From a candidate division FCPU426 bacterium (GTDB lineage: Bacteria > Oederibacteriota > Muellerivitia > Muellerivitales > Muellerivitaceae), in assembly GCA_963738405.1 (NCBI GenBank), contig CAVTWJ010000023.1, positions 96,001-160,000 of the forward strand: a stretch of 64,000 nucleotides of DNA, written 5' to 3'. The position numbers and the translations under genes are program-made. Shown here one piece after another: positions 8,015-62,391 of the stretch (position 1 is its first letter; each line of letters starts with the position of its first letter). The notes beneath the pieces were generated by a model. That model was not told the DNA's origin and searched no databases. It saw only the letters and a list, made by a program, of their open reading frames with translations.

Positions 8015-8042
8015 TGTCCACGATGGGTCCCCGTCGTGGACA
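8015..8042. repeat. Family B 28-bp palindromic cassette-boundary site
   Basis: TGTCCACGATG GGTCCC CGTCGTGGACA, identical to the copy at 58552. Confidence 0.95.
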
Positions 8043-8050
8043 GGTAATTT

Positions 8051-8782
8051 TTAAGTAGTTTCAATTCTAGTTATATTAACGAAAACCACTTTATCATTTT
8101 TAAAATTCAGAGTTATTGTCGCTGTGATGTCGTAAAACGGCTCTTTTCCGCCTTCCCATTTCTTCAGCGATTGATAGTTTCTTTGACCGGGCAAAACCTT
8201 AACTTGGGAATGGTAATAATATGTCCATTCGTCGTTCCGAAAATCTTTTTTGTCCCATTTTATTTCCTTAATCGCATCTCTTTTTGTGCCCGGTTCCGGG
8301 CTATATAAAAAACCATTTGGGTTACCAAATTTTTTTAAAATCCATTCTTTCGTAACGCCGATTCTTAACCCGCCCGCGGTTGAAATATCTTCATTCTTTT
8401 TATCGATGAGAAAATATTTTCTTGCATTTTCACCCTTGTTATCGAAGGGATACATACGCACAAGAGTAATAATTCGCCCCCCTCCGATTTCGCCCGAAAC
8501 AAATTCGATTGCTTGAGGATTTACCGGGTCATTGTTTCGGTAACAGATTTTATTTTCAAAACCTGACGCATCACCCGATTGAATGTTTTCTGCCTTGCCT
8601 AATCTATTAAGAACATCTAAAAGGCTTGTTTCATTTAAGAAAACATTAATTCCAATGATTATCTTTGTGCCTTTATCCATGTCGGCTTTTGACGTCGAAG
8701 ACGCAAATGCAGCACTAAATACACATAAGCCACAAATAAAAAAAGCGCGTAACGAAAAACTTAATATTTTGTCATTTGGCAT
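8051..8782 (-). CDS. AT-rich hypothetical exported protein (cassette cargo)
   Basis: ORF track gives 8051..8806; ATG at 8782 (MPNDK) follows GAGGGGG. Signal-peptide-like N-terminus. Bracketed by family B sites. Confidence 0.75.
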   Translation of the reverse strand: MPNDKILSFSLRAFFICGLCVFSAAFASSTSKADMDKGTKIIIGINVFLNETSLLDVLNRLGKAENIQSGDASGFENKICYRNNDPVNPQAIEFVSGEIGGGRIITLVRMYPFDNKGENARKYFLIDKKNEDISTAGGLRIGVTKEWILKKFGNPNGFLYSPEPGTKRDAIKEIKWDKKDFRNDEWTYYYHSQVKVLPGQRNYQSLKKWEGGKEPFYDITATITLNFKNDKVVFVNITRIETT

Positions 8783-8816
8783 CAGTCGTCCCCCTCGCAA
8801 ATACACTTTGAAACAT

Positions 8817-8881
8817 TGTCCAATACGGGTCCCCGCCCTGCAGCATGCGCTTGCGCTTAGCTACAGGGCCCGTCGCGGACA
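8817..8881. repeat. Family B site interrupted by a 37-nt hairpin insert
   Basis: TGTCCAATACG GGTCCC [insert 8834-8870] CGTCGCGGACA. Confidence 0.8.
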
Positions 8882-39945: not shown

Positions 39946-40512
39946 TTACATCATTCCCAATTGAAGCCGGGCGGCTTCGGTCATTAGGCTCTGGTTCCAG
40001 GGCGGCTCGAAGGTGACCTCCACCGCCGCCTCACGAACGCCCGGTATCCTAGCTAATTTTTCCTCGATCTCCGCCTTAAGCACCGTGGACATGCCGCAGC
40101 CGGGGGCTGTCAGGGTCATCACCACCTCCACCCTTTTGCCGCCCTCGGGATGGTCTTTGATGACGCAGCCATAAACCAGGCCCAGTTCAACGATATCCAC
40201 CGGAATTTCGGGGTCATAGCAGGTCTTGAGGGCCATTTGCACCTTCTTTTCAACCGTGGCCGAGTCCACTTCCCCCTGGTCTTTGTAGTCGATTTTGAAA
40301 ATCTTGGCTTCGGCAGGCACTTCCTTGCCCAGGGAGTCGGCGTCTTTGCCTTCGATGCGGACCAACTGGCCGTTGTCCCGTTGAACCGTGAAACTTCCGC
40401 CCAGGGTCTGGGTCAGGTAAACCTTCTCGTCTTTGAAAACCAAAGTTTCGGTTCCATAGGGAATGCTGATGGCCTTGGCGTCCCTCGTGACCGTTAAAAG
40501 TTCGTATTTCAT
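39946..40512 (-). CDS. sufT: Putative Fe-S cluster assembly protein SufT (DUF59)
   Basis: TQTLGGSFTV, CYDPEIPVDIVELGLVY, MTLTAPGCGM, FEPPW...MTEAARLQLGM. Confidence 0.92.
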   Translation of the reverse strand: MKYELLTVTRDAKAISIPYGTETLVFKDEKVYLTQTLGGSFTVQRDNGQLVRIEGKDADSLGKEVPAEAKIFKIDYKDQGEVDSATVEKKVQMALKTCYDPEIPVDIVELGLVYGCVIKDHPEGGKRVEVVMTLTAPGCGMSTVLKAEIEEKLARIPGVREAAVEVTFEPPWNQSLMTEAARLQLGMM

Positions 40513-48353: not shown

Positions 48354-49094
48354 CTATTTGTTCAATACCAATTCAGTTTTTCGATAGGACTTGGGCATCT
48401 GATCCCATGTGCGCCCGTCCAACGTCCGGCCGTTTTTCTTTTTCCAAACACCGCCCCACTGCTTGAAGAAAAAGGGAACCTTCGCCTTACGGCATTGTTT
48501 TTGAATATCAAGAACCCATTCCTTCTCCATGGGCCGAGCGCCTGGGCCTGATTCACCCCCGACGATGGCCCAATGAATGCCTTTCAGCTTCAAATTGGGA
48601 ATGGGGCTTAACAATGGTTCCAAAGAAAGAAATTTAATCTTAGCTTTTGTTTTTCTTAGTGAGTCTATGCGGTATGTGAACTTGTCGGATTCCACGCTTA
48701 CGCCCATCCAGATGTTGGGGGTCCATTTGAGGCCGGGACTAAGCATCTCAAGCCGGTCGGCCCTTTTAGTCAGCACTTGGAACTGGTGCCAATGGGCCTG
48801 GTTCATGACTTCAAAAATCTTCTTTACGAACTTTAATGGTATTTCCTGATGGAATAGATCGGACATCGAATTGACGAAAATGGTGCGGGGTTCCTTCCAA
48901 GTTAGTGGGAGGTTCAATCGATCCGGCCAAGTTCTCAAGTCAAAACCCTGCTCGTATGGATGCCCTGGAATACCACGCCACCTTTCGGCGAAACGTTCTG
49001 CATAGCAGTTGGCGCAACCGGCGCTAACCTTGTGGCAACCCGTTACTGGGTTCCAAGTTGAGTTGGTCCATTCGATGGTAGAAACTTCAGCCAC
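48354..49094 (-). CDS. DUF5131 family (phage Gp37/Gp68-like, three-Cys motif) protein
   Basis: IEWT..TWNPVTGC.KVS.GC.NCYA, FVNSMSDLFH, FLSLEPLL, IVGGESG, FFFKQWGG. Confidence 0.93.
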   Translation of the reverse strand: MAEVSTIEWTNSTWNPVTGCHKVSAGCANCYAERFAERWRGIPGHPYEQGFDLRTWPDRLNLPLTWKEPRTIFVNSMSDLFHQEIPLKFVKKIFEVMNQAHWHQFQVLTKRADRLEMLSPGLKWTPNIWMGVSVESDKFTYRIDSLRKTKAKIKFLSLEPLLSPIPNLKLKGIHWAIVGGESGPGARPMEKEWVLDIQKQCRKAKVPFFFKQWGGVWKKKNGRTLDGRTWDQMPKSYRKTELVLNK

Positions 49095-49104
49095 TTATTT
49101 CTCC

Positions 49105-49968
49105 TTAAAATTCAAAACCCATTTGTGGGGTTATATTCTTTTTAGTGTCACTCCAAAAACGCTGTCCCAATGGTTTACGACTGAAAAGCATCAAGTGATA
49201 GAGCAGAACGTTTTTTCCTTCAATGGTAACCCTTATGGAATCACTTGGGCCTCCATAACGATAACCAAGTTCTTTCATCTTTTCACAAAAATAATCCAGG
49301 ACAAACAAGGCGAAATCCCTATTTCCCGAGGCTATTACCTTTTCCCATTCCTTGCGCCAGTTTTGATCCCCGAAGAATTCATCTATCAATGGGTCATCCG
49401 GGTCCAAGTAAATATCCTGGTTTCGGCGAGCGTCATAACCAGTAGGTATTAAAACCAAAAAATCAACATACAGTTCAGACAGTCGTTTGATCGTCTTGAA
49501 TTTAATGTCGCTGATGCGAAAAGGATCCACTAAGCAAAACGAAAGACAGGAGCTACCCTTACCAAATTTTGGAATTTCTTCCAAGATTGCTTCAACATTC
49601 TGGTTGACGTCTCCCGTAATGATTTTGAACTTATCCGCATCACAAACCGCCGAAACCCTCTCGGCCAAAGCCGTGTAACATTCCGGATCTTGTTCACAGA
49701 AAATGTATTTATCGAAACGGTGCTCTACCCCCAAAGCTAATAACGGGGAACCGGGTACGATGATTCCCTGTTCCTCAATCTTAGATCGCCCTGCACCTGA
49801 AAAAAGATCAATGTAAACCCGGTTGTCCCACTTGGCTTTCATGCTGGTACTGAAAATTTTCAGGTAATAACTGATCGCTTGATACTTCTTCAAAGAATGG
49901 TCTTTGATCGACGGCGTTAGTAGGCCGTCATCCGCCAGTTGTGGGATTTCAGATGAATGATTTTCCAT
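49105..49968 (-). CDS. tcmP: Three-Cys-motif partner protein TcmP (methyltransferase-like fold)
   Basis: YIDLFSGAG, GSPLLAL, GDVN, LVDPF; directly upstream of DUF5131. Confidence 0.85.
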   Translation of the reverse strand: MENHSSEIPQLADDGLLTPSIKDHSLKKYQAISYYLKIFSTSMKAKWDNRVYIDLFSGAGRSKIEEQGIIVPGSPLLALGVEHRFDKYIFCEQDPECYTALAERVSAVCDADKFKIITGDVNQNVEAILEEIPKFGKGSSCLSFCLVDPFRISDIKFKTIKRLSELYVDFLVLIPTGYDARRNQDIYLDPDDPLIDEFFGDQNWRKEWEKVIASGNRDFALFVLDYFCEKMKELGYRYGGPSDSIRVTIEGKNVLLYHLMLFSRKPLGQRFWSDTKKNITPQMGFEF

Positions 49969-50115
49969 TGAACCAATTTCCTTAAATAGGTATACACAAG
50001 TATTCTAGCATATAGTGCAGTGCCACCAAAGGCCCTTGGTAGCGTTCATCCTTTTCACCCCGTCCAAACCTGATTTTTGGGGCATACCCTTTGACACTCG
50101 TTTTGTGAACGAGGG

Positions 50116-52545
50116 TCAGGGTGAATTCTGTACCGGTATAGATATCGCCATCTTCACCACTTTCGGGTTATAGGGCTTGGCGCCGCGCGTGTGCCAGTTG
50201 GTCTCGACCTTGTCCCATTCGCCTGGATCCACGACAAACAAAACATGGTTCCCCGGAGCGAGGTTTTGCAAAACGCCTTCCAAAGCCTTAGGGCTCTGCG
50301 CCATCTGCGGGTTTTGATCTACGCCCCAAACATGGTCGCCCGGCAGAAGGTTCGATTTTTCCACTGGGCTGTTTTGCCATTCCCCTTCCACCCGTCCCCC
50401 ATCGCCCAACAACACACCTTGGTTCAGGTAAGGCAATCCACTCACGGGTGCGTTCTTCCCCGCTCGGGCGTTTCGAATCCAAAATTCCAAGGCGGATAGC
50501 AAATGCTGGCAATCCTCAGCGGTGGCGCATTGAAACACCAAGGGCACCTTCAAACTCGATACCACCAATGAAAGCTGGTAGATCGGGTGGGGCGTTCCTG
50601 ACAACACCTCAATCTGGCAGGTGTGGATGGCCCTTACTTCTTCCCAATAAAATTCAATCTTGCTGGGCCCGCCTAATGGAAGGCCAAAGGGGTTATCCCC
50701 CTGAAAGGTCAAAACCAGGCTCGACATGTTGGGCATGAGTGTCAGTATCTTTTGGGTATCTTTTCCCACCTTCAGGGAATATTTTTCCGAATCCTGCATA
50801 TCCCCGGTTCGGCGCCCGGCCATGTCGGGGTTGATGCCCTCATCCGGCGTGACGGGAAAATCTTTCACCGTGGAGGGAAGAGGTATGGGGGCTATCTCAG
50901 CCTCCAGCATTTCTATTGTCTCGTCGGAAGCCTGCCAAGCATGACTGGGGAGATAGACTTGGACTGGGGTGTTAGAAACTGGTGTTAAAGGCTTTTTATC
51001 CCGGGGCCTTATTACCTTTTGGCCCGGGACAACTAAACCCCGCACCTCAGCCTGTTGCTTCGGTGCAAGTGACAGGTCACTCAAGGGTGTTTTTTGCGAG
51101 GCCTGATCGACCTTGGAAGCCGCACTCTCTGAATGGGTCCATGGGCTGAAAAGCCGGCCCACAAAACCCTCACCCCAACCAAGCATTCGGCCCGGATGGT
51201 GCCAAGCCCAAAGGATCGCCCAAAAGACCAAGAAGGTGAAAGCGAGCTGGATCAACCCGTTCACCCACTTTCCCTCGGCGCAAAGGCGGATGCCCTTTTC
51301 CAACATTCGATAGGGCAGTTTCACCAACCATTCCAGGCCCTTTAACAATTGGCTCCCAACCCATTTCAAGAATCTCAGCCATAAGGATTTGGATGCCTTG
51401 GCTTTAGAGCCCCCTTTGCCCTTAACGCCCCCCTTTGAACTGGCCTTCGCCTTGCCCTGGGCTTTTACCGTGCCTAAGTCTGAGGCGGCTTTTGTAAGGT
51501 GACCGGCCACTGCCGTTAGAACCTTGTGCAGCCCGCCCTGGGCGGGAGTGGGGGCATTGAGGGCGGCTTTGCCGTAATCCTCCGGTTGGTGGCCTTCCTT
51601 GATCCACGCCACAAAGGCCTTTACCTTGGCCTCGGTCATCTTATGTTCTATGGCCACGGCCAATGCCCGTCTAACCAAGTCTTGGGTTTCGGGGGGTATG
51701 ACGGGATAAGGCCATAGCTTTTGGGGTTCCAGCTGGGCTGAAGCCTCAAGCCGAAGCCCGTGACTTGCTTGTCCGGGCTCAATGGGGGTATCAGGAGCCG
51801 GGATCCCGACTTTCTTCTTGACCCCAGGCTTTAGGCCTGTTCCAGGGCCCAAACCTGCCAATTGTGCGGCGGCAATCTCGGAAATGCCCTTATTTCCCTT
51901 ATTTGAATTGCTCGTAATACGAGCAATTGAGGTCAATTCCGGGTTTGAATTGCTCGCAGTGCGAGCAATTAACTCCCTAGCCTCCGAGTTTAAGAGTGGT
52001 AAGAGCTTGATTGCCCTATTTACCTTCTCCTCGTCCATCTTTCTTTTGTCCGCGATCTGCCTTTGGGTGAGGTTCGGGTTGGCCTTTATCAGCAGTTCAA
52101 TGTGCAGGTAATCCCCCCACCAGCCCCTATCCCTGACCTTATTATCCCAATAGAGAAGATCGGCGGCTTCTTCGGGGTTCGGGTTGTGGATAAAGCCATC
52201 GATGCTCTCCCATTGAAGCAGTTCTGCGGCCCTGTCCCGCAGTTCCCCGCCATAGATCAAGTAATTGAAATCCCCCAGCTCCCAGGGCTTGCCATCCCCC
52301 CTTAGCCGGGGGTCATCGGGATGAAGCTGGGCCCCATTGGCCAGGGGGTTGGCCCTATCGGGACCCACCTGGATGGGGTTCTGGAGCCCCCTTTCGGCCA
52401 TATCATCCGCCTGATCCTTAATTTCTTGTTCGGTGGGCTTACCGGGGTTGTCCGGATTGCGGCGGAGGTTCTTGCGGGGGATCGGCTGTTTGCCGGGGAA
52501 AATTACAGGCAGAAGCTTCAAAACGTCTTCGATAGATACGGGCAT
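50116..52545 (-). CDS. ParB-like N-terminal domain + HTH + TM + PH-like + PDZ-like fusion protein
   Basis: NPDNP, GLQNPIQV, YLIYGGELRDRAA, LTQRQIADKRKMDEEKVNRAIKLL, TM LIQLAFTFLVFWAILWAW, FQCATAEDCQHLLSALEFW, NSPVEKSNLLPGDHVWGVD. Confidence 0.7.
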   Translation of the reverse strand: MPVSIEDVLKLLPVIFPGKQPIPRKNLRRNPDNPGKPTEQEIKDQADDMAERGLQNPIQVGPDRANPLANGAQLHPDDPRLRGDGKPWELGDFNYLIYGGELRDRAAELLQWESIDGFIHNPNPEEAADLLYWDNKVRDRGWWGDYLHIELLIKANPNLTQRQIADKRKMDEEKVNRAIKLLPLLNSEARELIARTASNSNPELTSIARITSNSNKGNKGISEIAAAQLAGLGPGTGLKPGVKKKVGIPAPDTPIEPGQASHGLRLEASAQLEPQKLWPYPVIPPETQDLVRRALAVAIEHKMTEAKVKAFVAWIKEGHQPEDYGKAALNAPTPAQGGLHKVLTAVAGHLTKAASDLGTVKAQGKAKASSKGGVKGKGGSKAKASKSLWLRFLKWVGSQLLKGLEWLVKLPYRMLEKGIRLCAEGKWVNGLIQLAFTFLVFWAILWAWHHPGRMLGWGEGFVGRLFSPWTHSESAASKVDQASQKTPLSDLSLAPKQQAEVRGLVVPGQKVIRPRDKKPLTPVSNTPVQVYLPSHAWQASDETIEMLEAEIAPIPLPSTVKDFPVTPDEGINPDMAGRRTGDMQDSEKYSLKVGKDTQKILTLMPNMSSLVLTFQGDNPFGLPLGGPSKIEFYWEEVRAIHTCQIEVLSGTPHPIYQLSLVVSSLKVPLVFQCATAEDCQHLLSALEFWIRNARAGKNAPVSGLPYLNQGVLLGDGGRVEGEWQNSPVEKSNLLPGDHVWGVDQNPQMAQSPKALEGVLQNLAPGNHVLFVVDPGEWDKVETNWHTRGAKPYNPKVVKMAISIPVQNSP
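51906..51970. repeat. Two perfect 23-bp palindromes inside the ParB-like gene
   Basis: AATTGCTCGTA-A-TACGAGCAATT (51906-51928) and AATTGCTCGCA-G-TGCGAGCAATT (51948-51970); 42-bp period. Confidence 0.9.
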
Positions 52546-52763: not shown

Positions 52764-53990
52764 ATGCAGAAATTATTCATGTTATTTTTTCTTGTCGGTT
52801 TCAGCTATGCCCAAACTATGGTTCTGACCCCATCCTTAACCTCTACCACTTCGCCGGTTACAACCCCGAACATGATTCCCTCCCCAACCTCCCCTGTTCC
52901 GGCTTCAAATGTTCCGGGTCAATTGGAATTCGACAAAGGTTTTGAGTTCTTAAATATAAGAGATTTTAAAAACGCGAGGGATTGGTTTGAAAAGGCCAAA
53001 CAAGCGGGAAACATCGAAGCCGAATATGAAATTTACGTCCTGGATCATTTTCCTGATCATGCCCAATTCGTAGGGACAAACGACATTACCTATATATCTG
53101 AAAGTGTTACCAATCAGGATGACGTCAAATCTGGCACCCAGGCGCTTCTGGAAATTACACTCCGGTCCGCCAACCAGGGAAATGTACGGGCTGAGGGACG
53201 CCTTTGGGGTTTTTATAGCAGGGATAAGGCCTATCTTGGATATCCCCAAAATATGGCGGAAGGCCTCAAATGGCTTAGAAAAGCCGCGGAACAAGGGGAC
53301 CCTAGTTCAGAGGACGCGCTTGGTCAATTCTACGAGCAAGGGCCGGAAATTAAGATCCAAACAGGCCTGCCGAAAGACATGGTATTAGCCAGGCATTGGT
53401 ACGAATTGGCCGCGGCACAGGGGTGGTCGGACGCGAAAACAAAAGTGGCCCAGTTTGACAGCGAAAACGAAGCAGTAACCTGTTGGGGCTTTATCGGAAA
53501 TCAGCTTACACATGGTTCCGAGACGACTCAGAGACTTGAATTGGAAAAACCTGTCACGTTAGGGAATCCCATCGGAGCCCTTCTTCTGTGCCCCATACAA
53601 AAAACAGAGACTTACATGCCCTACGCGAAGATAACGGGCAATATCCATTGGACTGGGTGGCGGCCTATGTTGAAAATCAATTCCGTCGAAATCATCCAGG
53701 ACCAGGGGAGCCATTTTATTGATCACATAACCGAAGCGTCCCAGTACGTGCCGGATATGGTTCTGGTCATGTTCAAAGAGGACACGCCAGAAAATGTAAT
53801 GTCAGAAATTCTTTCAAAAATGGGCGATTCCACACCCCTGGCCCAGAGATTACTCAAAAACAATTTTTCTATTAAGCTTAGAAAAGGGATGTCCGTAAAG
53901 GATGCCCTTAAAATTTTGCTGAACAACCCCAACGTGGAGTCCGCCGAACCCGACCAAATTAGAAATATTTCTTCTAGTGTGGGCTCATAA
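52764..53990 (+). CDS. Exported Sel1-repeat protein with C-terminal subtilase-prodomain-like domain
   Basis: Signal peptide; KWLRKAAEQG, HWYELAAAQG; C-terminal YVPDMVLVMFK...NPNVESAEPD. Confidence 0.75.
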   Translation: MQKLFMLFFLVGFSYAQTMVLTPSLTSTTSPVTTPNMIPSPTSPVPASNVPGQLEFDKGFEFLNIRDFKNARDWFEKAKQAGNIEAEYEIYVLDHFPDHAQFVGTNDITYISESVTNQDDVKSGTQALLEITLRSANQGNVRAEGRLWGFYSRDKAYLGYPQNMAEGLKWLRKAAEQGDPSSEDALGQFYEQGPEIKIQTGLPKDMVLARHWYELAAAQGWSDAKTKVAQFDSENEAVTCWGFIGNQLTHGSETTQRLELEKPVTLGNPIGALLLCPIQKTETYMPYAKITGNIHWTGWRPMLKINSVEIIQDQGSHFIDHITEASQYVPDMVLVMFKEDTPENVMSEILSKMGDSTPLAQRLLKNNFSIKLRKGMSVKDALKILLNNPNVESAEPDQIRNISSSVGS

Positions 53991-55780: not shown

Positions 55781-56845
55781 TCAAACTTGAGATTCCCTTT
55801 CATCCAGCAGGGCCACCGAGAGGGCGGGAAAATAAAGGGCGCAAAAAACCACAAAAAAGGCCGCCGTGAACAGCATTCCAAAGAAACTCAAGAACCCCAC
55901 CAAAGGCACCAAAAGCGCCAGTATCAAGAAAATCTGGACCACGATAAAAAGCGCCGCTAGGCCTATCAGGGCCAAAAAGACGCACTTCGTGAAATGCCAG
56001 CCCTGGGCAGAGCAGGATTTCCAGCCAAGCGTTAAGGATTCGGCGATGCCTTTGCCGCTTCCCACCCAAGCCTTAACCGCCAGCGAATAGGCCACGATTC
56101 CAAAAGCCACGGCAAGGTAAAGGAGGAAAACAGGGATGCTGAAGCAAACCATGATGGCCAAAGAAAGGCCGTCGCTTAAATGCAGGGCATGGATGAATAA
56201 ACCAACCCCCATCCCAACGACGCGGAAACCCAGGCCGACCCCTAAGGAAATCACGAACAATAGAGCCAGGGTTGCCAGATAGGGGAGGAAACGCCCTAAG
56301 GCATCCTTAAAAAATTCTCCGAGGGAAAAACCCTTCCCCTCCCTCTTAAGCCTCCAAAAGGCCCCGTAGATACCGCCATTGACCAGGGCTTCCAAAAACA
56401 GCGCCCACAGGCAATAAAAAAACAGGAGACCCAAAAAAATACCAAGCCAGGAAGTATCGGATGTCCCTATGGAATAAAGTTTATTTGTAAATTCCTGGGG
56501 ATCGTAGCTGTCCGGGTTTTGAATAATATCCCCGAAGGCCTGCCCCATGGCCGCGATGAGCGGCCAACACCCAACCAGAAAAACCACCCCCAGCATGGCC
56601 AGGTTCATCAGGGCCGCCAGGGACTGGAGGATCAACAGGGGCCACATTTTCATGCAGGCTTGAAAGGCGTTTTGGAACAGGACAGAGAAGGAAGTTTCCG
56701 CGCCCACGGAGGGAGAAGGTGTGGCCGTTGCCTCGGGCGCGGCATTCGGGAGCACCACGCTTTCGACAGAACTTAAGCGGGGTTTGCGACGGGGTGTTCT
56801 GGGACGAGACGATTTTCTTACCGTCCGCTTCACTGATTTCGGCAT
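55781..56845 (-). CDS. Multi-TM hypothetical membrane protein
   Basis: Basic N-terminal tail followed by several hydrophobic helices; host-like composition. Confidence 0.8.
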   Translation of the reverse strand: MPKSVKRTVRKSSRPRTPRRKPRLSSVESVVLPNAAPEATATPSPSVGAETSFSVLFQNAFQACMKMWPLLILQSLAALMNLAMLGVVFLVGCWPLIAAMGQAFGDIIQNPDSYDPQEFTNKLYSIGTSDTSWLGIFLGLLFFYCLWALFLEALVNGGIYGAFWRLKREGKGFSLGEFFKDALGRFLPYLATLALLFVISLGVGLGFRVVGMGVGLFIHALHLSDGLSLAIMVCFSIPVFLLYLAVAFGIVAYSLAVKAWVGSGKGIAESLTLGWKSCSAQGWHFTKCVFLALIGLAALFIVVQIFLILALLVPLVGFLSFFGMLFTAAFFVVFCALYFPALSVALLDERESQV

Positions 56846-56881: not shown

Positions 56882-56909
56882 TGTCCAATCAGGATCCCCA
56901 TCGCGGACA
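56882..56909. repeat. Family B site (degenerate, terminal)
   Basis: TGTCCAATCAG GATCCC CATCGCGGACA. Confidence 0.8.
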
Positions 56910-56956
56910 AGCCAAACACTTCATTGAAATTTGTATTCGGGGTATAAATCACCCGT

Positions 56957-57694
56957 TTATTTACCTAGTCGCAACTTTAATACGCTCAAAACCTTTTGGC
57001 GAGTTAGAACTGGAAGTCGGCTCAAAACCAAAGCGGAAACTTCCTTCATTTGTTCAAACAAAACAGATTCTTCTGAAGTGTCCTTCAATAAAGATGCCGA
57101 ACTATCCTTCATTGCGTCTTCGACACCATCTTCATCCAATTTACGGTCTTGCTCAGTTTTGTTTTGGCGTTCTCTCTCCTCCTGTTCGCCCATGGAAGAG
57201 ATACGACTTTGGCTATCCGCATTCGAGGTCCAATCCTCTTTCAATTCATGAACACGATTCAACAATCGGTTAATTTCCTTCAAGCCTTCCCATATCTCTT
57301 CCCCCGAAATTCCCGGTATCTTTCGCAAATCGGAAAGAACAAAGTCTTTCACACCTCGATCCAAACCCTTACCCCAATTCCGCATATCGGAAACATCCTC
57401 TTTGCCCGAAACAAAACCGATAAATGTATTGCAGGTCTCTTCGCCTACTTGATTAATTATTTTTTTACTTTGTTGGGTCGACATACCACTAATTGTCTTC
57501 AAAAAACGGCCATCTCCAAATAATTCGTAACTATTTTTTTGAGTTTCTTCCTCGTTTCTTAAATCGCGAAGACGAGTTATCAATTCCGCCTGGTGGATCT
57601 TATAAGTTTTGAATTGTTGGAAGAGAAAATACGAAAGAACAACGAAAAGTAATAGAAAAAGGTAAAAGTTGGCTGAATATTTATTCTTTTTCAT
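56957..57694 (-). CDS. AT-rich hypothetical protein with N-terminal TM anchor (cassette)
   Basis: 245 aa ORF filling the interval between sites 56882 and 57718. Confidence 0.75.
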   Translation of the reverse strand: MKKNKYSANFYLFLLLFVVLSYFLFQQFKTYKIHQAELITRLRDLRNEEETQKNSYELFGDGRFLKTISGMSTQQSKKIINQVGEETCNTFIGFVSGKEDVSDMRNWGKGLDRGVKDFVLSDLRKIPGISGEEIWEGLKEINRLLNRVHELKEDWTSNADSQSRISSMGEQEERERQNKTEQDRKLDEDGVEDAMKDSSASLLKDTSEESVLFEQMKEVSALVLSRLPVLTRQKVLSVLKLRLGK

Positions 57695-57717
57695 ACTCGT
57701 CCCATTTTTCCTTTAAG

Positions 57718-57745
57718 TGTCCACGACGGGTCCCTGTCGTGGACA
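57718..57745. repeat. Family B site
   Basis: TGTCCACGACG GGTCCC TGTCGTGGACA. Confidence 0.95.
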
Positions 57746-57757
57746 AGGTCTAGGGCG

Positions 57758-58201
57758 CTAAATCGGATTTCGAAAGTATTTTCCAAGAAATTCCCTAGGG
57801 GTAAGGATTTCCACTTCCTTCACTCGCTCCAGGGGACGGATATCTTGGTGGTCTCCCGTGACTAGGACACGGGCCTGGGCATCCACCGCGCATTCCAAAA
57901 TCCGGTTGTCAGCGTCTTTCCTTTTGATGGTTGTGAAATGGGAGCGGGGCTCGATGAGAACAAATACGGTTTTGAGCCTTCGCCTTAATTCAATGATGCG
58001 GTGATGGTCCCACCCGGCTTTTCGGGCCAGGGTATTTTCCAACTCGGCAAGGATATAGGACGAAACGACAGCTTCGATTTTTCCTTCCCGGGCCAATTCC
58101 AAGACTTTTAAGGGAGGGCTATCTTTTCCAAATGCCAGCGCGGAAAACAATACGTTGGTATCGACAACCACCCGTAATGGTTTACTTTCTGGCATCGTCA
58201 A
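57758..58201 (-). CDS. PIN family toxin
   Basis: RVVVDTNVLFSAL, DNRILECAV, LVTGD, ILTPREF. Confidence 0.92.
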   Translation of the reverse strand: MTMPESKPLRVVVDTNVLFSALAFGKDSPPLKVLELAREGKIEAVVSSYILAELENTLARKAGWDHHRIIELRRRLKTVFVLIEPRSHFTTIKRKDADNRILECAVDAQARVLVTGDHQDIRPLERVKEVEILTPREFLGKYFRNPI

Positions 58202-58430
58202 TCAGCTGTTCAACGTCCTCCGCCGTCCTGATTCCCATTTGGGCGGCCTTGCCTCGACCGTAAGAGACCAATTCCTGCCAATCCGCCTCCTCTTTTTGAT
58301 AACGCCTGAGCGCGTCCCGGAGCAACTCGGAGCGAGTCATTCCCTTTACCTTTGCCAGCCGGTCCATTTCACTGTAAACCTTTGGCGGGAGGGATATGGT
58401 TGTTGTTTTGCTGGTTCTTCCCGTGGCCAT
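58182..58430 (-). CDS. Ribbon-helix-helix (CopG-like) antitoxin
   Basis: TTTISLP...DRLAK..G.TRSELLRDALRRY; overlaps the toxin start. Confidence 0.9.
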   Translation of the reverse strand: MATGRTSKTTTISLPPKVYSEMDRLAKVKGMTRSELLRDALRRYQKEEADWQELVSYGRGKAAQMGIRTAEDVEQLIDDARK

Positions 58431-58551
58431 ATTTTTATCCTGTATTACTAAGTGTTACAATAAGCTTAATCCCAGAATACTTCGAATTCAATCCCGCAAT
58501 TCATTGAGAAACGGCCAAAATGAAAATCTGGGCTATTATCGGGCTTTCACC

Positions 58552-58579
58552 TGTCCACGATGGGTCCCCGTCGTGGACA
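58552..58579. repeat. Family B site
   Basis: TGTCCACGATG GGTCCC CGTCGTGGACA. Confidence 0.95.
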
Positions 58580-58597
58580 ACCTTTTATTTTTTAAGT

Positions 58598-58990
58598 CTA
58601 TTCTTTTTCCAAATCCATTTCTAATTCTTTGAAAATAAGGTAAAGCTTATGGCTTTCCTCTTTCAGTTTTTCATTAATTTCAGTTCCGATTTGTCCATAT
58701 TTTCGCGGATCAAACCAACAATCTAAAAGAAGACTACCCATACCGCCTATCAGAGACTTCTTTAGAAAAGTTATTTGTTTCTTGGAAAGTGGGCCTTCTT
58801 GCACCTCGATTAAAGAAGCGATGGCATTAAGTTCTCCCCAGCGTACTAGGGCATAAGGGTCCGGAACTAAGTCATTAATTTTTCCAGGAACGTCTTTATC
58901 CAAATATAAAATTTCAAACTTATCACGTGTAAGAGGTTTAAAAACTTCAGCTGTGATCCTAAGTTGTTCAACAAATTTTTGTTTATTCAT
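58598..58990 (-). CDS. AT-rich hypothetical protein with GGMGS motif (DUF6966-like; cassette)
   Basis: 130 aa, GAGGTGG SD, LIGGMGSL motif; family call tentative. Confidence 0.7.
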   Translation of the reverse strand: MNKQKFVEQLRITAEVFKPLTRDKFEILYLDKDVPGKINDLVPDPYALVRWGELNAIASLIEVQEGPLSKKQITFLKKSLIGGMGSLLLDCWFDPRKYGQIGTEINEKLKEESHKLYLIFKELEMDLEKE

Positions 58991-59013
58991 AATTAAATAC
59001 CCACCTCAATATC

Positions 59014-59041
59014 TGTCCACGACGGGTCCCCGTCGTGGACA
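59014..59041. repeat. Family B site (perfect arms)
   Basis: TGTCCACGACG GGTCCC CGTCGTGGACA. Confidence 0.95.
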
Positions 59042-59042
59042 T

Positions 59043-59399
59043 CTAATTCCAATTAGATTTTTTTCGTTTCATGTCAAATAATAACCTTAAAAATAATTTA
59101 CCTATTTTTGATAAAACAAAAATTGCCACAATACTAACAAAAACACTAATTATTCTAATTGTCCATACAATGCTTTCTGGAATAACACCCGCAAAAGATT
59201 GGCGGTGAGTTATCACGAAAACTGTGAAAAACCCGTCGAATAAATAAAAAATGGCGAAAGCGCAGACCAAAAAAAAGATGAGCAAAGCATCAGACCATTT
59301 TTTACGAAATTTATTTACTGGATCATCGTCAAAAGTATCAGGCATCTTTAATCCTAAGTTTTGTTTCTCTCTCAATTTATCTTCATTTTCTTTGTCCAC
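59043..59399 (-). CDS. Small two-TM hypothetical protein (cassette)
   Basis: Stop 1 nt from site 59014; first GTG lies inside site 59393. Confidence 0.7.
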   Translation of the reverse strand: MDKENEDKLREKQNLGLKMPDTFDDDPVNKFRKKWSDALLIFFLVCAFAIFYLFDGFFTVFVITHRQSFAGVIPESIVWTIRIISVFVSIVAIFVLSKIGKLFLRLLFDMKRKKSNWN

Positions 59400-59420
59400 G
59401 AAGGGTCCCCGTCGCGGACA
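59393..59420. repeat. Family B site
   Basis: TGTCCACGAAG GGTCCC CGTCGCGGACA. Confidence 0.95.
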
Positions 59421-59423
59421 ACA

Positions 59424-59792
59424 TTAAATCCAATTTACTTTATTTGGGCCCTCAGGTTTAGGCGGATTCTTTTTCCGCAATTCATCCTGCTTTTTGACGA
59501 TTTTAATAACCCAATAAAACCAATTTATTAAAAATAGTGCTAACCAAAAAAGCCTCAAATTAGACACAGCATCTTGGGTATCCTGTTTTAATATCGAATG
59601 AACACAAAAGCTGGAAAGCGGGAAAAAGATAAACATTATTCCTGTCAAGGTGAACAAACCGCCAAATGCCCAAACCGCGCCTTCGTATTTCGATAAATTA
59701 GAAAATGCAAATTTAAAATATATCGTTGCTAATCCCGAAAGAAGAACCCCGCCTGATAATCCCCAAAATATAAATTCACCCATTCTTTTCAT
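59424..59792 (-). CDS. Small three-TM hypothetical protein (cassette)
   Basis: Stop 3 nt from site 59393; start 20 nt from site 59813. Confidence 0.7.
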   Translation of the reverse strand: MKRMGEFIFWGLSGGVLLSGLATIYFKFAFSNLSKYEGAVWAFGGLFTLTGIMFIFFPLSSFCVHSILKQDTQDAVSNLRLFWLALFLINWFYWVIKIVKKQDELRKKNPPKPEGPNKVNWI

Positions 59793-59812
59793 CCTTCAAA
59801 CCCATAATTTGT

Positions 59813-59840
59813 TGTCCACGAAGGGTCCCTGTCGTGAACA
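59813..59840. repeat. Family B site
   Basis: TGTCCACGAAG GGTCCC TGTCGTGAACA. Confidence 0.92.
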
Positions 59841-59866
59841 ACATTTCCCGACCAACTCTTTAACTT

Positions 59867-60265
59867 TTATGGCAAACAATGAAATCCATGTTCTCCAAAA
59901 TGCTTGTCAAAGGTGTGAACGTTCTTGACCCCGTTTCGCCGCATAACTTCAAAGCTGACGCAATCCACGAGGCTCAAATTCCTTCGTTTGGCGGTCAGAA
60001 CGGCGGCAAGTCCCGCCTCATGGTAGTTCTCATCGACCCATTCCAATGATAGAAGCGGTACCACATCCCTTTGAAAATCGGCCACGGCTTCCAAACCCAA
60101 ACGGTTTTGGATTAGGGAGAACGTCTCTAAAAGGGTGTAATTAGTGGTCACCAAGGCGGCATCCGACTCCAGCAGGGATTTCCAAGCTTGATCGGCTTTT
60201 TCGTGGAAGCGGTCTTCTTTTGTCAAAAGTGCGATAAAAAAGGAAGTATCAATGAAAGAGGTCAC
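59867..60265 (-). CDS. VapC-type PIN toxin
   Basis: FIDTSFFIAL, LLET, LSLVDCVSFEVM, TFDKHF. Confidence 0.92.
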   Translation of the reverse strand: MTSFIDTSFFIALLTKEDRFHEKADQAWKSLLESDAALVTTNYTLLETFSLIQNRLGLEAVADFQRDVVPLLSLEWVDENYHEAGLAAVLTAKRRNLSLVDCVSFEVMRRNGVKNVHTFDKHFGEHGFHCLP

Positions 60266-60507
60266 TTGGCGTAGTCATCCGCCAGGTACTTGTCGTGATG
60301 GATGGAAAGATCGGTGTGCTTGGAATGAAATTTCCCGGAAATGGCGATGGCGCGTTTCCGCCGCTCCTCAGGGCTGATGATTCCATTCTTTAAAAATAAT
60401 TCAACCCCCTGCCGGATGGCCTCCGCCATGGATATATGACGTTCCTTGGCGATTTTTTTCAATGAAGTGGTTTGCTTTTGGGTTAATTGAATTTGGGTGC
60501 GAACCAC
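60262..60507 (-). CDS. CopG/RHH antitoxin
   Basis: MVRTQIQLT, SMAEAIRQGV, DLSIHHDKYL; overlaps the toxin start. GATAACAC direct repeat upstream. Confidence 0.9.
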   Translation of the reverse strand: MVRTQIQLTQKQTTSLKKIAKERHISMAEAIRQGVELFLKNGIISPEERRKRAIAISGKFHSKHTDLSIHHDKYLADDYAK

Positions 60508-60549
60508 GGACCCCTCCCGAGTGATAACACTTACAGCATTACGATAACA

Positions 60550-60786
60550 CTAAAGACTAATCTTGAAGCGAGAAAATCGGGGCCACATTCTCATGCAGGC
60601 TTGGAAGGCGTTTTGGAACAGGGTGGAGAAAGAAGTTTCCGCGCCAACGGACGAGGAAGGCGCGACCGGTGTCTCGGGCGCAGCATTCGGGAGCACCACG
60701 CTTTCGACGGAGGCCGGTACGCTTTTGCGGCGCGGGGCCCTGCGGGGGGAAGCAGTTTTCCTGGTTCTTTTGACCGGCTTCGGCAT
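60550..60786 (-). pseudogene. Truncated divergent copy of the 5' end of gene 55781..56845
   Basis: MPKPVKRT...SVESVVLPNAAPE...SVGAETSFSTLFQNAFQACMRMWP aligns with the N-terminus of that gene, then breaks off. Confidence 0.85.
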
Positions 60787-60841
60787 GTGTATCTCCGTTG
60801 TTAATCTTTCTTTTTATGGACAACCATTACTTAAATTTCAT

Positions 60842-60869
60842 TGTCCACGATGGATCCCAATCATGGACA
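60842..60869. repeat. Family B site (degenerate)
   Basis: TGTCCACGATG GATCCC AATCATGGACA; an extra half-site ATGGACAAC lies at 60816-60824. Confidence 0.85.
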
Positions 60870-60879
60870 AGGCTATCTT

Positions 60880-61290
60880 TCAAATCCAGGGATTGAAAAG
60901 CTTCAACCTTGAAAATGAAAAGTCATGGGTATTGCGGGTGACCAGGGTGAGATTGTGGGTAATTGCTGTTGCCGCGATAAACGCGTCCACCGTCGGCAAT
61001 GGGCGATTGGCCTGTGCTTCCAAAAGTCCCCAAGCTTCGGCTACCTTGATATCCACTGGCAATATTCTTTCTTCAAATTGAATTGGGACGTCTTTCTCAA
61101 GGAATTGAATAAGCTTGGTTTTCCGGGAACCATGTTCCATTTTCTCAATTCCTTTTCGGATTTCCCCCACGGTCAAAACGCTCAAATAAAGCGATCCTTG
61201 GTCCGCATCCTTCAGCCAACTTGACACCTTGGGTTCCGGATGTTTCTTGAAGAGTTCGGAAAGGACGTTGGTGTCCAAAAGGTATTTCAA
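60880..61290 (-). CDS. VapC-type PIN toxin
   Basis: YLLDTNVLSE, LSVLTVGEIRKGIE, DAFIAATA..HNLTLVTRN..DF, LFNPW. Confidence 0.95.
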   Translation of the reverse strand: MKYLLDTNVLSELFKKHPEPKVSSWLKDADQGSLYLSVLTVGEIRKGIEKMEHGSRKTKLIQFLEKDVPIQFEERILPVDIKVAEAWGLLEAQANRPLPTVDAFIAATAITHNLTLVTRNTHDFSFSRLKLFNPWI

Positions 61291-61535
61291 AACTTCACCT
61301 TTCGCGAGACGGATTTATTCCTTTGAAAATTCAAATCCAATCCGCGAAAAGGAGAATGCCTAAAAAACTCAACTAGGTTGGGTTTGGTTTTTCTCAGGCG
61401 CTCGTAGTCCTTTTTGGAAATCACAACGGCCTCTTCACGACCGTGTAATGTGATGGACTGCGGACCATTGTTTTTCACTGTTCGAATCAGTTCGCTGAAC
61501 CTGGCCTTGGCGGTTTGCAGTTGCCACGAAGTCAT
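61287..61535 (-). CDS. Phd/YefM family antitoxin
   Basis: WQLQTAKARFSELI...GPQSIT.HGREEAVVIS...Y. Confidence 0.93.
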   Translation of the reverse strand: MTSWQLQTAKARFSELIRTVKNNGPQSITLHGREEAVVISKKDYERLRKTKPNLVEFFRHSPFRGLDLNFQRNKSVSRKVKF

Positions 61536-61575
61536 CGGTTGCCCCCGTTGAAATATTTATGACTATTCTGACTAG

Positions 61576-61604
61576 ATTCTATATAGGACGAAACGCTTTG
61601 TCAA
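61576..61604 (-). promoter_or_regulatory. sigma70 promoter of the phd-vapC cassette
   Basis: Minus strand TTGACA-17 nt-TAGAAT, followed by a TAGTCA direct repeat (candidate antitoxin operator). Confidence 0.75.
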
Positions 61605-61612
61605 TTTTCCAT

Positions 61613-61641
61613 TGTCCGCGCCGGGGACCCCCTCGCGGACA
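61613..61641. repeat. Family B site with inverted core (29 bp)
   Basis: TGTCCGCGCCG GGGACC CCCTCGCGGACA; the core is the reverse complement of GGTCCC. Confidence 0.8.
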
Positions 61642-61667
61642 ACAGATCCCGACCCACTCTTTAACTT

Positions 61668-61864
61668 TTATGGCAAACAATGAAATCCATGTTCTCCAAA
61701 ATGCTTGTCAAAGGTGTGGACGTTCTTGACCCCGTTTCGCCTCATCACCTCAAAGTTGACGCAATTCACGAGGCTTAAATTCCTTCGTTTGGCGGTCAGA
61801 ACGGCGGCAAGTCCCGCCTCATGGTAGTTCTCATCGACCCATTCCAATGATAGAAGCGGCACCA
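61668..61864 (-). pseudogene. 3' fragment duplicate of the PIN toxin 59867..60265
   Basis: PLLSLEWVDENYHEAG...HGFHCLP is nearly identical; conserved Asp in LVDCVS reads LVNCVN; the 5' half is missing. Confidence 0.9.
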
Positions 61865-61890: not shown

Positions 61891-62391
61891 TTAGCGGTAA
61901 TTATTGAACTGGAGGGGAACCTTGATCTCCTGGGCGCTCCGAAGCAACTGCATCACCCCTTGAAGATCGTCCTTGTCCTTACCTGAAACCCTTACCTTCT
62001 CATCCACGATGGATACCTGCACCTTGAGCTTAGAATCCTTGACCCGCTTCACGATATCCTTGCAGGCCTCCATGGGCATTCCGCTGACGATCTTGACCTT
62101 CTGGTTAACCGTGCCGCTGAAGGCCGATTCGGCCTTTTGGTAATCCATGGCCTTGGGGGAGATGTTGCGCTTGATGAGTTTGCCGTTTAATACGTCCACC
62201 ACCGCTTTGAGGCGGGAATCATTATCAGAAACGATTTCCAATTCTTTGGTGGCCTTGTTGAGGGTGATCTTGCTGATGCTTCCCTTGAAATCGTAGCGCT
62301 GGGTAATTTCTTTCATCGCTTGGTTGACGGCGTTGTCCACTTCCTGCAGGTCCACCTCGGAAACCACGTCAAAGGAGTATTGATCAGCCAT
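61891..62391 (-). CDS. yajQ: YajQ family nucleotide-binding protein
   Basis: SFDVVSEVDLQEVDNAVNQA.KEI..RYDFKG, VRVSGK..DDLQ, PLQFNNYR. Confidence 0.96.
   Translation of the reverse strand: MADQYSFDVVSEVDLQEVDNAVNQAMKEITQRYDFKGSISKITLNKATKELEIVSDNDSRLKAVVDVLNGKLIKRNISPKAMDYQKAESAFSGTVNQKVKIVSGMPMEACKDIVKRVKDSKLKVQVSIVDEKVRVSGKDKDDLQGVMQLLRSAQEIKVPLQFNNYR

Follow-up and report, generated by a model that had tools for sequence, protein, structure and literature searches.

A short repeat in the 64,000-nucleotide stretch of DNA analysed here (the window) is real and marks the joints between mobile gene cassettes. Compared across 31 family genomes, the cassette array it delimits beside yajQ is probably an orphan, belonging to an integron-like system in which a large serine recombinase shortened at its C terminus does the work. 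The classic gene-cassette platform, the integron, relies on IntI and folded attC sites. In these bacteria, an integron-like gene-collecting system appears to have been invented from different parts. If true, this would be a second platform of like layout, built independently from a serine enzyme acting on a short double-stranded site. The design would then have more than one evolutionary origin, and a class of arrays would be escaping integron search tools. No description of such a system was found in literature searches. The yajQ array would be a good test case, as a recent entry into a conserved operon that retains seven cassettes although the genome has seemingly lost the enzyme gene.

The repeat and the array at yajQ

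The site is present at all eight positions of the original prediction, which had described eight like 28-bp copies in an 11-6-11 layout. Sites 1 to 7 are co-oriented 28-bp copies with 6, 1, 0, 0, 1, 3 and 4 mismatches to the earlier consensus, whereas site 8 has 29 bp and is inverted, its core reading GA on the plus strand. The 11-6-11 layout was not supported; the outer pairs of the supposed 6-bp core GGTCCC are self-complementary. The consensus is a 13-2-13 palindrome, TGTCCACGACGGG-TC-CCCGTCGTGGACA, with TC as its asymmetric core. Site 4 matches it perfectly, and the divergent site 1 keeps 7 of 13 arm pairs. Searching the window at three mismatches gave 14 strand matches at seven places against 0.01 expected, one of which (8015) lies outside the yajQ array. 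Genome-wide, a profile search found 56 copies scoring at least 18 bits at 21 loci (none in the reversed genome), and 27 of 30 family relatives contain sites. Table 1 summarizes the features of the window.

Table 1. Sites, cassettes and flanking genes in the window
Feature	Position	Strand	Remarks
Native left flank: 354-aa membrane protein gene, then recO, gluconokinase-like gene	55781..56845	-	
Site 1	56882..56909	+	leftmost; 36 nt from start of native 354-aa membrane protein gene
Cassette 1: 245-aa ORF	56957..57694	-	hydrophobic stretch N-terminal; no family
Site 2	57718..57745	+	
Cassette 2: RHH antitoxin (58182-58430), PIN_3 toxin (57758-58201)	57758..58430	-	PF01402, PF13470 above cut-off
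Site 3	58552..58579	+	
Cassette 3: 130-aa ORF	58598..58990	-	no family
Site 4	59014..59041	+	
Cassette 4: small membrane protein ORF	59043..59399	-	longest frame begins within site 5; first ATG near 59345; no family
Site 5	59393..59420	+	
Cassette 5: 122-aa membrane protein ORF	59424..59792	-	
Site 6	59813..59840	+	
Cassette 6: RHH antitoxin, PIN toxin	59867..60507	-	right-hand site lost in this array
Duplicate of 5' end and upstream region of native flanking gene	60579..60816	-	238 bp; 77% identical over 243 nt; duplication relic
Site 7	60842..60869	+	
Cassette 7: Phd antitoxin (61287-61535), VapC/PIN toxin (60880-61290)	60880..61535	-	
Site 8	61613..61641	-	29 bp
Copy of cassette 6 PIN gene, 5'-truncated	61624-61864 (past site 8 proper: 61642..61864)	-	93% identical; ragged right end of insert
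yajQ, native right flank	61891..62391	-	
Second array locus: site (8015-8042), AT-rich 251-aa ORF, second site	8015..8881	+	

The original prediction described the array well in its site spacings (836, 834, 462, 379, 420, 1029 and 771 bp), in the distance of stop codons from a site (47, 12, 18, 1, 3, 26 and 10 nt) and in placing all interval genes on the minus strand. Three other features hold in part. AT richness is confined to the four single-gene intervals (GC 0.30-0.39); the toxin-antitoxin (TA) intervals lack it (0.45-0.50) and leave 77-334 nt free upstream of the first gene. Single genes start within 23 nt of a site in three of four cases, the exception being the 59014-59393 cassette, since its longest ORF starts 7 nt inside the site and its first ATG lies about 47 nt off. 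One ORF or TA pair per interval fails for 59813-60842, where a TA pair and a 238-bp gene copy do not make a clean cassette. The ORFs of cassettes 1, 3, 4 and 5 match no Pfam, NCBIfam or PADLOC family, and Atlas results for cassettes 1 and 3 were blank or weak. Cassette 5 has a 71% DNA match in one relative (G001), there without sites. A sigma-70-like promoter match (11/12) lies at 61604-61576 in cassette 7. At the second locus, the site at 8817-8881 carries a 37-bp hairpin insert and a DUF433-like gene pair follows it. In the wider set of 231 intervals holding an ORF of at least 80 aa, the main ORF runs opposite in strand to the TC reading in 217.

By comparison of gene order, the array is a lineage-specific insert between yajQ and its native neighbour, the 354-aa membrane protein gene, as the two genes directly adjoin without a site in all 26 relatives examined, the most distant loci (G010, G013 and G019) being left out. 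Empty alleles at four loci (yajQ, 26 relatives; the window locus at 8015, 29; hemB, 5; queG, 5) contained no site and were all too diverged to give the target sequence, none being seen at near identity. Numerous arrays, the yajQ array at its right end included, finish raggedly in 5'-truncated genes where a site is lacking; site-specific recombination does not explain this. Exact matches to the site numbered zero in viral contigs, and a plasmid search returned only relatives under 60% identity. The host is an uncultured soil bacterium; one soil run, possibly its source sample, yielded eight short identical contigs, one spanning site 7 and none the whole array, and no circle junctions were found in the contigs of that run.

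Cassettes move with junctions inside the site

Arm identity was compared over 364 sites in 11 genomes, intron-flanked sites being left out. Where the left flank is shared (at least 95%), the left arm is identical in 15 of 15 cases and the right arm in 7 of 15; where the right flank is shared, the right arm is identical in 15 of 19 and the left arm in 3 of 19 (background 6.4% for the left and 20.7% for the right arm). These alignments show shared cassettes keeping the site half that belongs to them when they join other neighbours and place the crossover within positions 13-18; arm linkage alone narrows it no further. For two cassettes of the window, copies in other genomes align from the TC onwards. 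Cassette 6 recurs in G020 and G025 with sites on both sides and different neighbours, and the TA pair of cassette 7 recurs in G014, where homology begins exactly at the TC of site 7. Together with the absence of the insert in relatives, recurring cassettes and arm linkage support the predicted cassette capture and shuffling system with its own site.

Half-sites narrow the crossover further. Among 22 of them (including two probable chance matches), TC is kept in 18 and GG at positions 12-13 in only 8, compared with 292 of 318 full sites. In full sites TC is conserved no more highly than positions 12 and 16-17. Half-sites break at TC, which together with arm linkage points to a 2-bp crossover there.

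The short serine recombinase

A serine recombinase of 275-281 aa is encoded in 5 of the 31 family genomes. It contains PF00239 and PF07508, lacks PF13408 and ends before the first CxxC, while the catalytic-type motifs YxRVS and DRLYR are invariant. The short proteins form a single clade (support 100/100) and are roughly 55% identical to relatives of full length from this family, and dN/dS values of 0.04-0.16 indicate that the gene is under purifying selection after truncation. Five other frames of 255-310 aa were set aside: four, affected by frame breaks or contig ends, do not belong to the clade, and the remaining one repeats a family genome. The AlphaFold model is weak (pLDDT 62, pTM 0.43); its top Foldseek matches are serine integrases and contribute little.

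The recombinase gene heads an array and faces the cassettes, and genes of mobile-element type surround it in G001 (L012:1465-2298, encoding 277 aa), G020 and G027. A site follows 10-38 nt behind its stop codon in four of five genomes and in the fifth is split by a group II intron. Further metagenome members of the clade with DNA past the stop have the site behind the gene in 4/4 cases (one cut by a contig end, one inverted at 111 nt), and 74 long relatives gave one weak site match (L197). The prediction of an enzyme encoded elsewhere is supported, and the site is most likely cut and rejoined by the short serine recombinase. Shortened recombinase copies in G001 had no convincing pseudo-sites at their truncation points.

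In the host genome (90.7% complete), PF00239 had no match even at E 10, PF07508 only sub-threshold matches and a recombinase motif regex none. A remnant at C4:54311-54421 (81% over 111 nt, E 1e-21), corresponding to the 3' end of the gene only, lies next to a site and heads another array. With only this 111-bp remnant in the genome, the yajQ array is probably orphaned. Median site counts are 75 with the gene, 54 with a piece of it and 4 without (kin are not independent); with the queries used, no recombinase trace was detected in G025 (41 strand matches), G003 (28) and G018 (22).

In the LI integrase, the recombinase domain spans 13 bp and the zinc domain covers positions 16-24 (PMC3783163), the former matching the 13-bp arm of the site. 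Deprived of the coiled coil, LI integrase becomes promiscuous and performs intermolecular integration poorly (PMC5499577); the sequence specificity of its recombinase domain is low (PMC11722253; PMC3783163). The short enzyme may therefore need a helper.

Alternatives, known systems and proposed mechanism

It is improbable that the repeat is a REP-like or RNA-level element (terminator or processing site) recombined by the host over its 28-bp identity, with the recombinase a passenger cut short by the array. Scattering like an ordinary REP is seen in part, since the 21 loci often lie inside conserved operons; yet the sites are always beside accessory genes, and relatives have none in the orthologous gaps. 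Such an element would also fit the duplications and ragged ends of the window and the many site-rich genomes without the recombinase gene. However, the ordinary REP-like family of this genome (99 copies) forms inverted doublets (34 inverted, 1 direct), unlike the site, whose neighbouring pairs are co-oriented in 240 cases and opposed in 5. Moreover, junctions fall at the site centre even without the left arm, the short gene is under purifying selection, only one of eight array sites scores as terminator-like, and Rfam gave no match to the site.

Slightly less credible still is a tyrosine-recombinase site of 11-6-11 layout, used by a host Xer-type enzyme or some other integrase in the manner of the Acinetobacter pdif modules. 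PMC13141974 describes 28-bp sites that likewise bound small, reshuffled accessory or TA modules; full sites show good conservation at positions 12-17, and nine PF00589 matches in the genome would put an enzyme at hand where the serine recombinase is lacking. Against this, the arms match the XerD arm (XerC/XerD sequences confirmed in that source) at only 3/11 positions, in line with the original prediction that they are not XerC/XerD arms. A separate AT-rich 11-6-11 palindrome in the genome, whose arm equals a XerC arm of the pdif table there, lies about 430 nt upstream of a tyrosine recombinase. The pdif sites alternate in orientation and have a 6-bp core, whereas here arms are GC-rich and symmetric, orientation is direct (240 of 245 neighbours), the location is chromosomal and the core has 2 bp. 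Half-sites drop positions 12-13 and keep TC, one 100% identical cassette end is joined to both CCTCCC and GGTCCC cores, and any tyrosine recombinase match is at least 43 kb from a site or on a site-free contig. With the site found directly behind a short serine recombinase in relatives, neither this option nor the HUH/RAYT option of the original prediction is supported.

Least probable of all is that the site works as a hairpin of one strand, the substrate of an IntI-like, HUH/RAYT or IS110-type enzyme. Consensus copies do form stems of 12 bp (z -3.9 to -5.9), 23 of 364 sites directly border the end of a group II intron, which recalls IIC-attC introns (PMC8876359), and three Y1_Tnp genes are present. 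However, arms pair barely better than shuffled ones (10.67 against 10.58 pairs over 324 sites; 6/1000 shuffles), frequent arm variants disrupt pairing without compensatory change, giving no sign of hairpin selection, site 1 does not fold (z -0.44), no site lies within 1-1.5 kb of the Y1 genes, neither attC core motif (RYYYAAC, GTTRRRY) occurs within 10 nt of any of the eight sites, as the original prediction had it, and IntI (TIGR02249) exceeds the 265-bit cut-off in 0 of 31 genomes (best 84.5).

The proposed serine-recombinase system resembles integrons and CALINs as PMC8618304 presents them: behind a recombinase gene (intI there) come a first, distinct site and then co-oriented cassettes of one gene or a TA pair that face it, with orphan arrays elsewhere, group II introns at sites, and ORFan and TA cargo. 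It differs in having a fixed 28-bp site of one type for first and cassette sites, a serine enzyme in place of IntI, no attC cores and crossover at the site centre. Large serine integrases (LI/A118, SPbeta, Bxb1, phiC31) share the catalytic and recombinase domains, a central dinucleotide and a gene beside the site (PMC3783163; PMC5499577; PMC11722253; PMC10083194). A published survey of such recombinases kept only proteins of 400-650 aa and would exclude the short one. The enzyme here lacks the zinc ribbon and coiled coil, and would use one symmetric 28-bp site instead of attP/attB of 40-50 bp and move passenger cassettes and not its own element. In staphylococcal cassette chromosome (Ccr) composite islands, serine recombinases move stacked cassettes at repeated att sites; those are full-length enzymes with large elements at one chromosomal site, whereas here single-gene cassettes occupy over 20 loci.

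For this preferred reading, we infer catalysis by the short recombinase, circles, absence of directionality, and the manner of expression and TA function. The 28-bp site would be a double-stranded dimer-binding site with two 13-bp arms round TC, where the enzyme would cut and exchange halves through subunit rotation. As TC sets orientation, co-oriented sites would yield an excised one-site circle able to re-insert at any other site, each cassette having the right arm on the 3' side of its gene and the left arm on the 5' side. Lacking a zinc ribbon and coiled coil, the enzyme would not distinguish attP from attB or need a directionality factor. With the gene apparently lost save its 3' end, the 21 loci would be frozen or served in trans. 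Promoterless cassettes may be read from the yajQ operon or TA promoters, and TA cassettes probably stabilise the array.

The 277-aa recombinase and its symmetric 28-bp site are a candidate engineering tool, and what look like off-target junctions give direct access to the question of cassette origin, still open for integrons. Our tentative further proposal, plausible but held with less than even confidence, is that an integron analogue of independent evolutionary origin is run by a naturally minimal serine recombinase without directionality, which also makes cassettes and seeds arrays from neighbouring chromosomal DNA. Such cassette birth would follow if the enzyme accepts one intact arm plus TC; if true, it would give a testable route to new cassettes and a compact Cre-like serine tool. 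Possible signs of it are the 22 half-sites broken at TC and, in two genomes, a unit of 82-90 bp whose left arm is degenerate and whose neighbours differ. Others are cassettes that carry fragments of the recombinase or of a queG-like gene, and outer right arms that are weaker at array ends.

An inserted array of palindromic sites

The window array is real. It is most likely orphaned, and the cassette system to which it belongs, apparently undescribed, is probably driven by a serine recombinase. All eight sites of the original prediction were recovered at their positions, while its 11-6-11 layout gives way to the consensus TGTCCACGACGGG-TC-CCCGTCGTGGACA, in which two perfectly complementary 13-bp arms flank TC. 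A search allowing three mismatches matched 7 window positions where 0.01 were expected, and a profile built from the source genome returned 56 copies of at least 18 bits at 21 loci there and 0 in the reversed genome. Seven window sites are co-oriented, and the eighth (29 bp) has an inverted core. With up to two mismatches, the site occurs in 27/30 family genomes and 1/30 outside the family, with zero matches in the reversed control; it was not found in the viral contigs searched.

The window array is an insert. Of 29 relatives with a yajQ match, 26 were examined, and in 26/26 the membrane-protein gene left of site 1 follows yajQ within 444 nt, with neither site nor cassette in the gap. The right end of the array is ragged and lacks a site. 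Such ragged site-less ends, found at other arrays as well, need another process. At a second array locus (8015), the native neighbours are adjacent in 25/29 relatives and no site of at least 12 bits occurs in any of the 29; at two further array loci the site is absent in 5/5 relatives each. No near-identical empty allele was seen at the loci compared with relatives.

AT-rich ORFs without a known family occupy four window intervals, and type II TA pairs (RHH/PIN twice, Phd/VapC) occupy three, in line with the one ORF or pair per interval of the original prediction. Duplication relics are also present: behind site 7 the 5' end of the left flanking gene is repeated, and beyond site 8 lies a PIN copy truncated at its 5' end. 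The simplest reading would be that a unit of TA cassette, sites and start of the flanking gene was duplicated in tandem and then partly deleted, the two copies presumably ending with different cassettes between their sites. Left of the array lies an island, two genes of which may resemble a radical SAM gene and its three-Cys partner of the phage Gp37/Gp68 type; it also encodes a protein of 809 aa whose start is ParB-like, and it has short DNA matches to a mobile-element gene adjoining the recombinase in the relative G001.

Features located in the window, the source genome (G000) and relatives
Feature	Sequence	Position
Array of eight sites	window	56882-61641
Island left of the array	window	48357-52545; about 52970-53200
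REP-like repeat copies	window	815, 961, 39824, 39891, 44413, 45992, 54708, 54770, 55713, 62426, 62494
Site with 37-bp internal hairpin insert directly right of core	window	8817-8881
Same	G000 C12	86328
Same	G001, several loci	
Inverted sites around 174-aa gene	G000 C21	54954, 55583
Recombinase 3' remnant between two sites	G000 C4	54311-54448
Tyrosine recombinase gene cluster	G000 C22	214284-217263
AT-rich 11-6-11 palindrome	G000 C12	about 40103-40134
Cassette with remains of former neighbours	G001 C2 (L321)	3843-4011
Same	L314, L317	

Cassette movement and the crossover point

Comparison of 364 distinct sites from 11 genomes (arrays full only for the source genome, mostly for G001-G004 and G027) indicates that cassettes move and that the joint is the site centre. 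Neighbouring sites less than 3 kb apart are co-oriented in 240/245 cases, and the main ORF is opposite in strand to the TC reading in 217/231. Non-redundant pairs sharing one flank (at least 95%) and differing in the other were compared, intron-flanked sites being left out. Where the pairs had the left flank in common, the left arm was identical in 15/15 and the right in 7/15; where they had the right flank in common, it was the right arm that was identical in 15/19 and the left in 3/19 (random pairs: 6.4% left, 20.7% right). From the left, differences go as far as position 13; from the right, they set in at 18. Half-sites, with an intact right arm and no left arm, keep TC in 18/22, and GG at 12-13 in 8/22 versus 292/318 full sites. 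The RHH/PIN cassette adjoining site 6 recurs in G020 and G025 with sites on both sides and other neighbours, its match to G025 beginning at the TC of site 6; likewise, the Phd/VapC match to G014 begins at the TC of site 7. Arm linkage, half-sites and these two cassettes bear out the proposed shuffling at the system's own site.

The TA pairs of the window also turn up without sites in other relatives (7/10 loci examined have no site at the junction), indicating that TA genes move into and out of cassettes. No one-site circle junction was found in the reads of one soil run. Across 12 multi-site arrays of the source genome, terminal right arms are weaker than internal ones (18.3 vs 21.9 bits, p 0.003), and left arms hardly differ (p 0.1); this right-arm weakness only partly fits array seeding by off-target insertion. 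The remains of former neighbours carried by some cassettes come from the 3' end of a queG-like gene and from the recombinase gene, of which the final 46-68 nt are kept. The 174-aa gene between inverted sites, an insertion between genes abutting in G003, could be invertible.

A candidate serine recombinase

A tyrosine recombinase or HUH/RAYT-type enzyme had been envisaged; in the source genome tyrosine recombinases and Y1 transposases lie far from sites, and no integron integrase exceeded the cut-off in 31 genomes. The arms show no conservation as a hairpin: pairs per site number 10.67 versus 10.58 with shuffled arms. Five relatives (G001, G004, G020, G024, G027) carry a gene for a protein of 275-281 aa that combines Resolvase and Recombinase domains but has no zinc ribbon. 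A site lies 10-38 nt past its stop codon in four; in G020 the site behind it is split by a group II intron. Four further clade members from metagenomes share this arrangement, whereas 74 long relatives gave one weak site match. The short recombinases form one clade (support 100/100), with dN/dS of 0.04-0.16 where dS is measurable. G001 carries three 5'-truncated copies (96-99.8% identical) whose shared sequence ends where the first site ends, with a different cassette behind each. RadC-like genes (below the family cut-off) nearby in G001 and G027 suggest a mobile element.

Some site-rich drafts show no trace of the gene. Only 5/31 genomes have an intact gene; none was found in the source genome, where a 3' remnant on contig C4 (111 nt, 81% identical) directly precedes the first site of the C4 array. 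Two sites bracket this remnant, as though the gene had been cut at a resembling site inside it.

In the LI integrase structure, a half-site meets the recombinase domain over 13 bp and the zinc domain at positions 16-24 (PMC3783163); by analogy, an enzyme with the former and without the latter would fit 13-bp arms. LI integrase without its coiled coil loses site identity and integrates poorly (PMC5499577). From these parallels, a likely cycle would begin at two co-oriented sites, with excision of the DNA between them as a circle carrying one site, and end with re-insertion of the circle at any site, perhaps with a helper for integration; TC would set direction. The little specificity of the LI recombinase domain (PMC11722253) counts against simple transfer of the model but fits the site's loose left arm.

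The system would work like an integron, its orphan arrays resembling CALINs (PMC8618304), but IntI, attC and hairpin tests all proved negative. Pdif membership tests (PMC13141974) were likewise negative, in agreement with the prediction of neither attC nor XerC/XerD. The candidate enzyme is a derivative of serine integrases without the C-terminal domains that define them. Only proteins of 400-650 aa were kept in a large LSR survey (PMC10083194). Listings and abstract openings from mainly open-access literature yielded no description of this cassette system.

Introns and other repeats

Group II introns end two bases from the site, on either side, at 23/364 sites (L059, L070, L073, L078, L079, L119-L129 and others). 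At L013 and L122 an intron of a second type interrupts the site directly right of the core. The source genome has none of these introns. Similar 37-bp hairpin inserts occur in two genomes. The source genome has a second, REP-like repeat family of 99 copies, mostly inverted doublets between housekeeping genes. Its tyrosine recombinase cluster at a contig end is RIT-like and includes a gene with an internal stop. The AT-rich symmetric palindrome on C12, separate from the 28-bp cassette site, precedes the gene of a 356-aa tyrosine recombinase by about 430 nt and is probably the genome's dif site for a single Xer-type enzyme.
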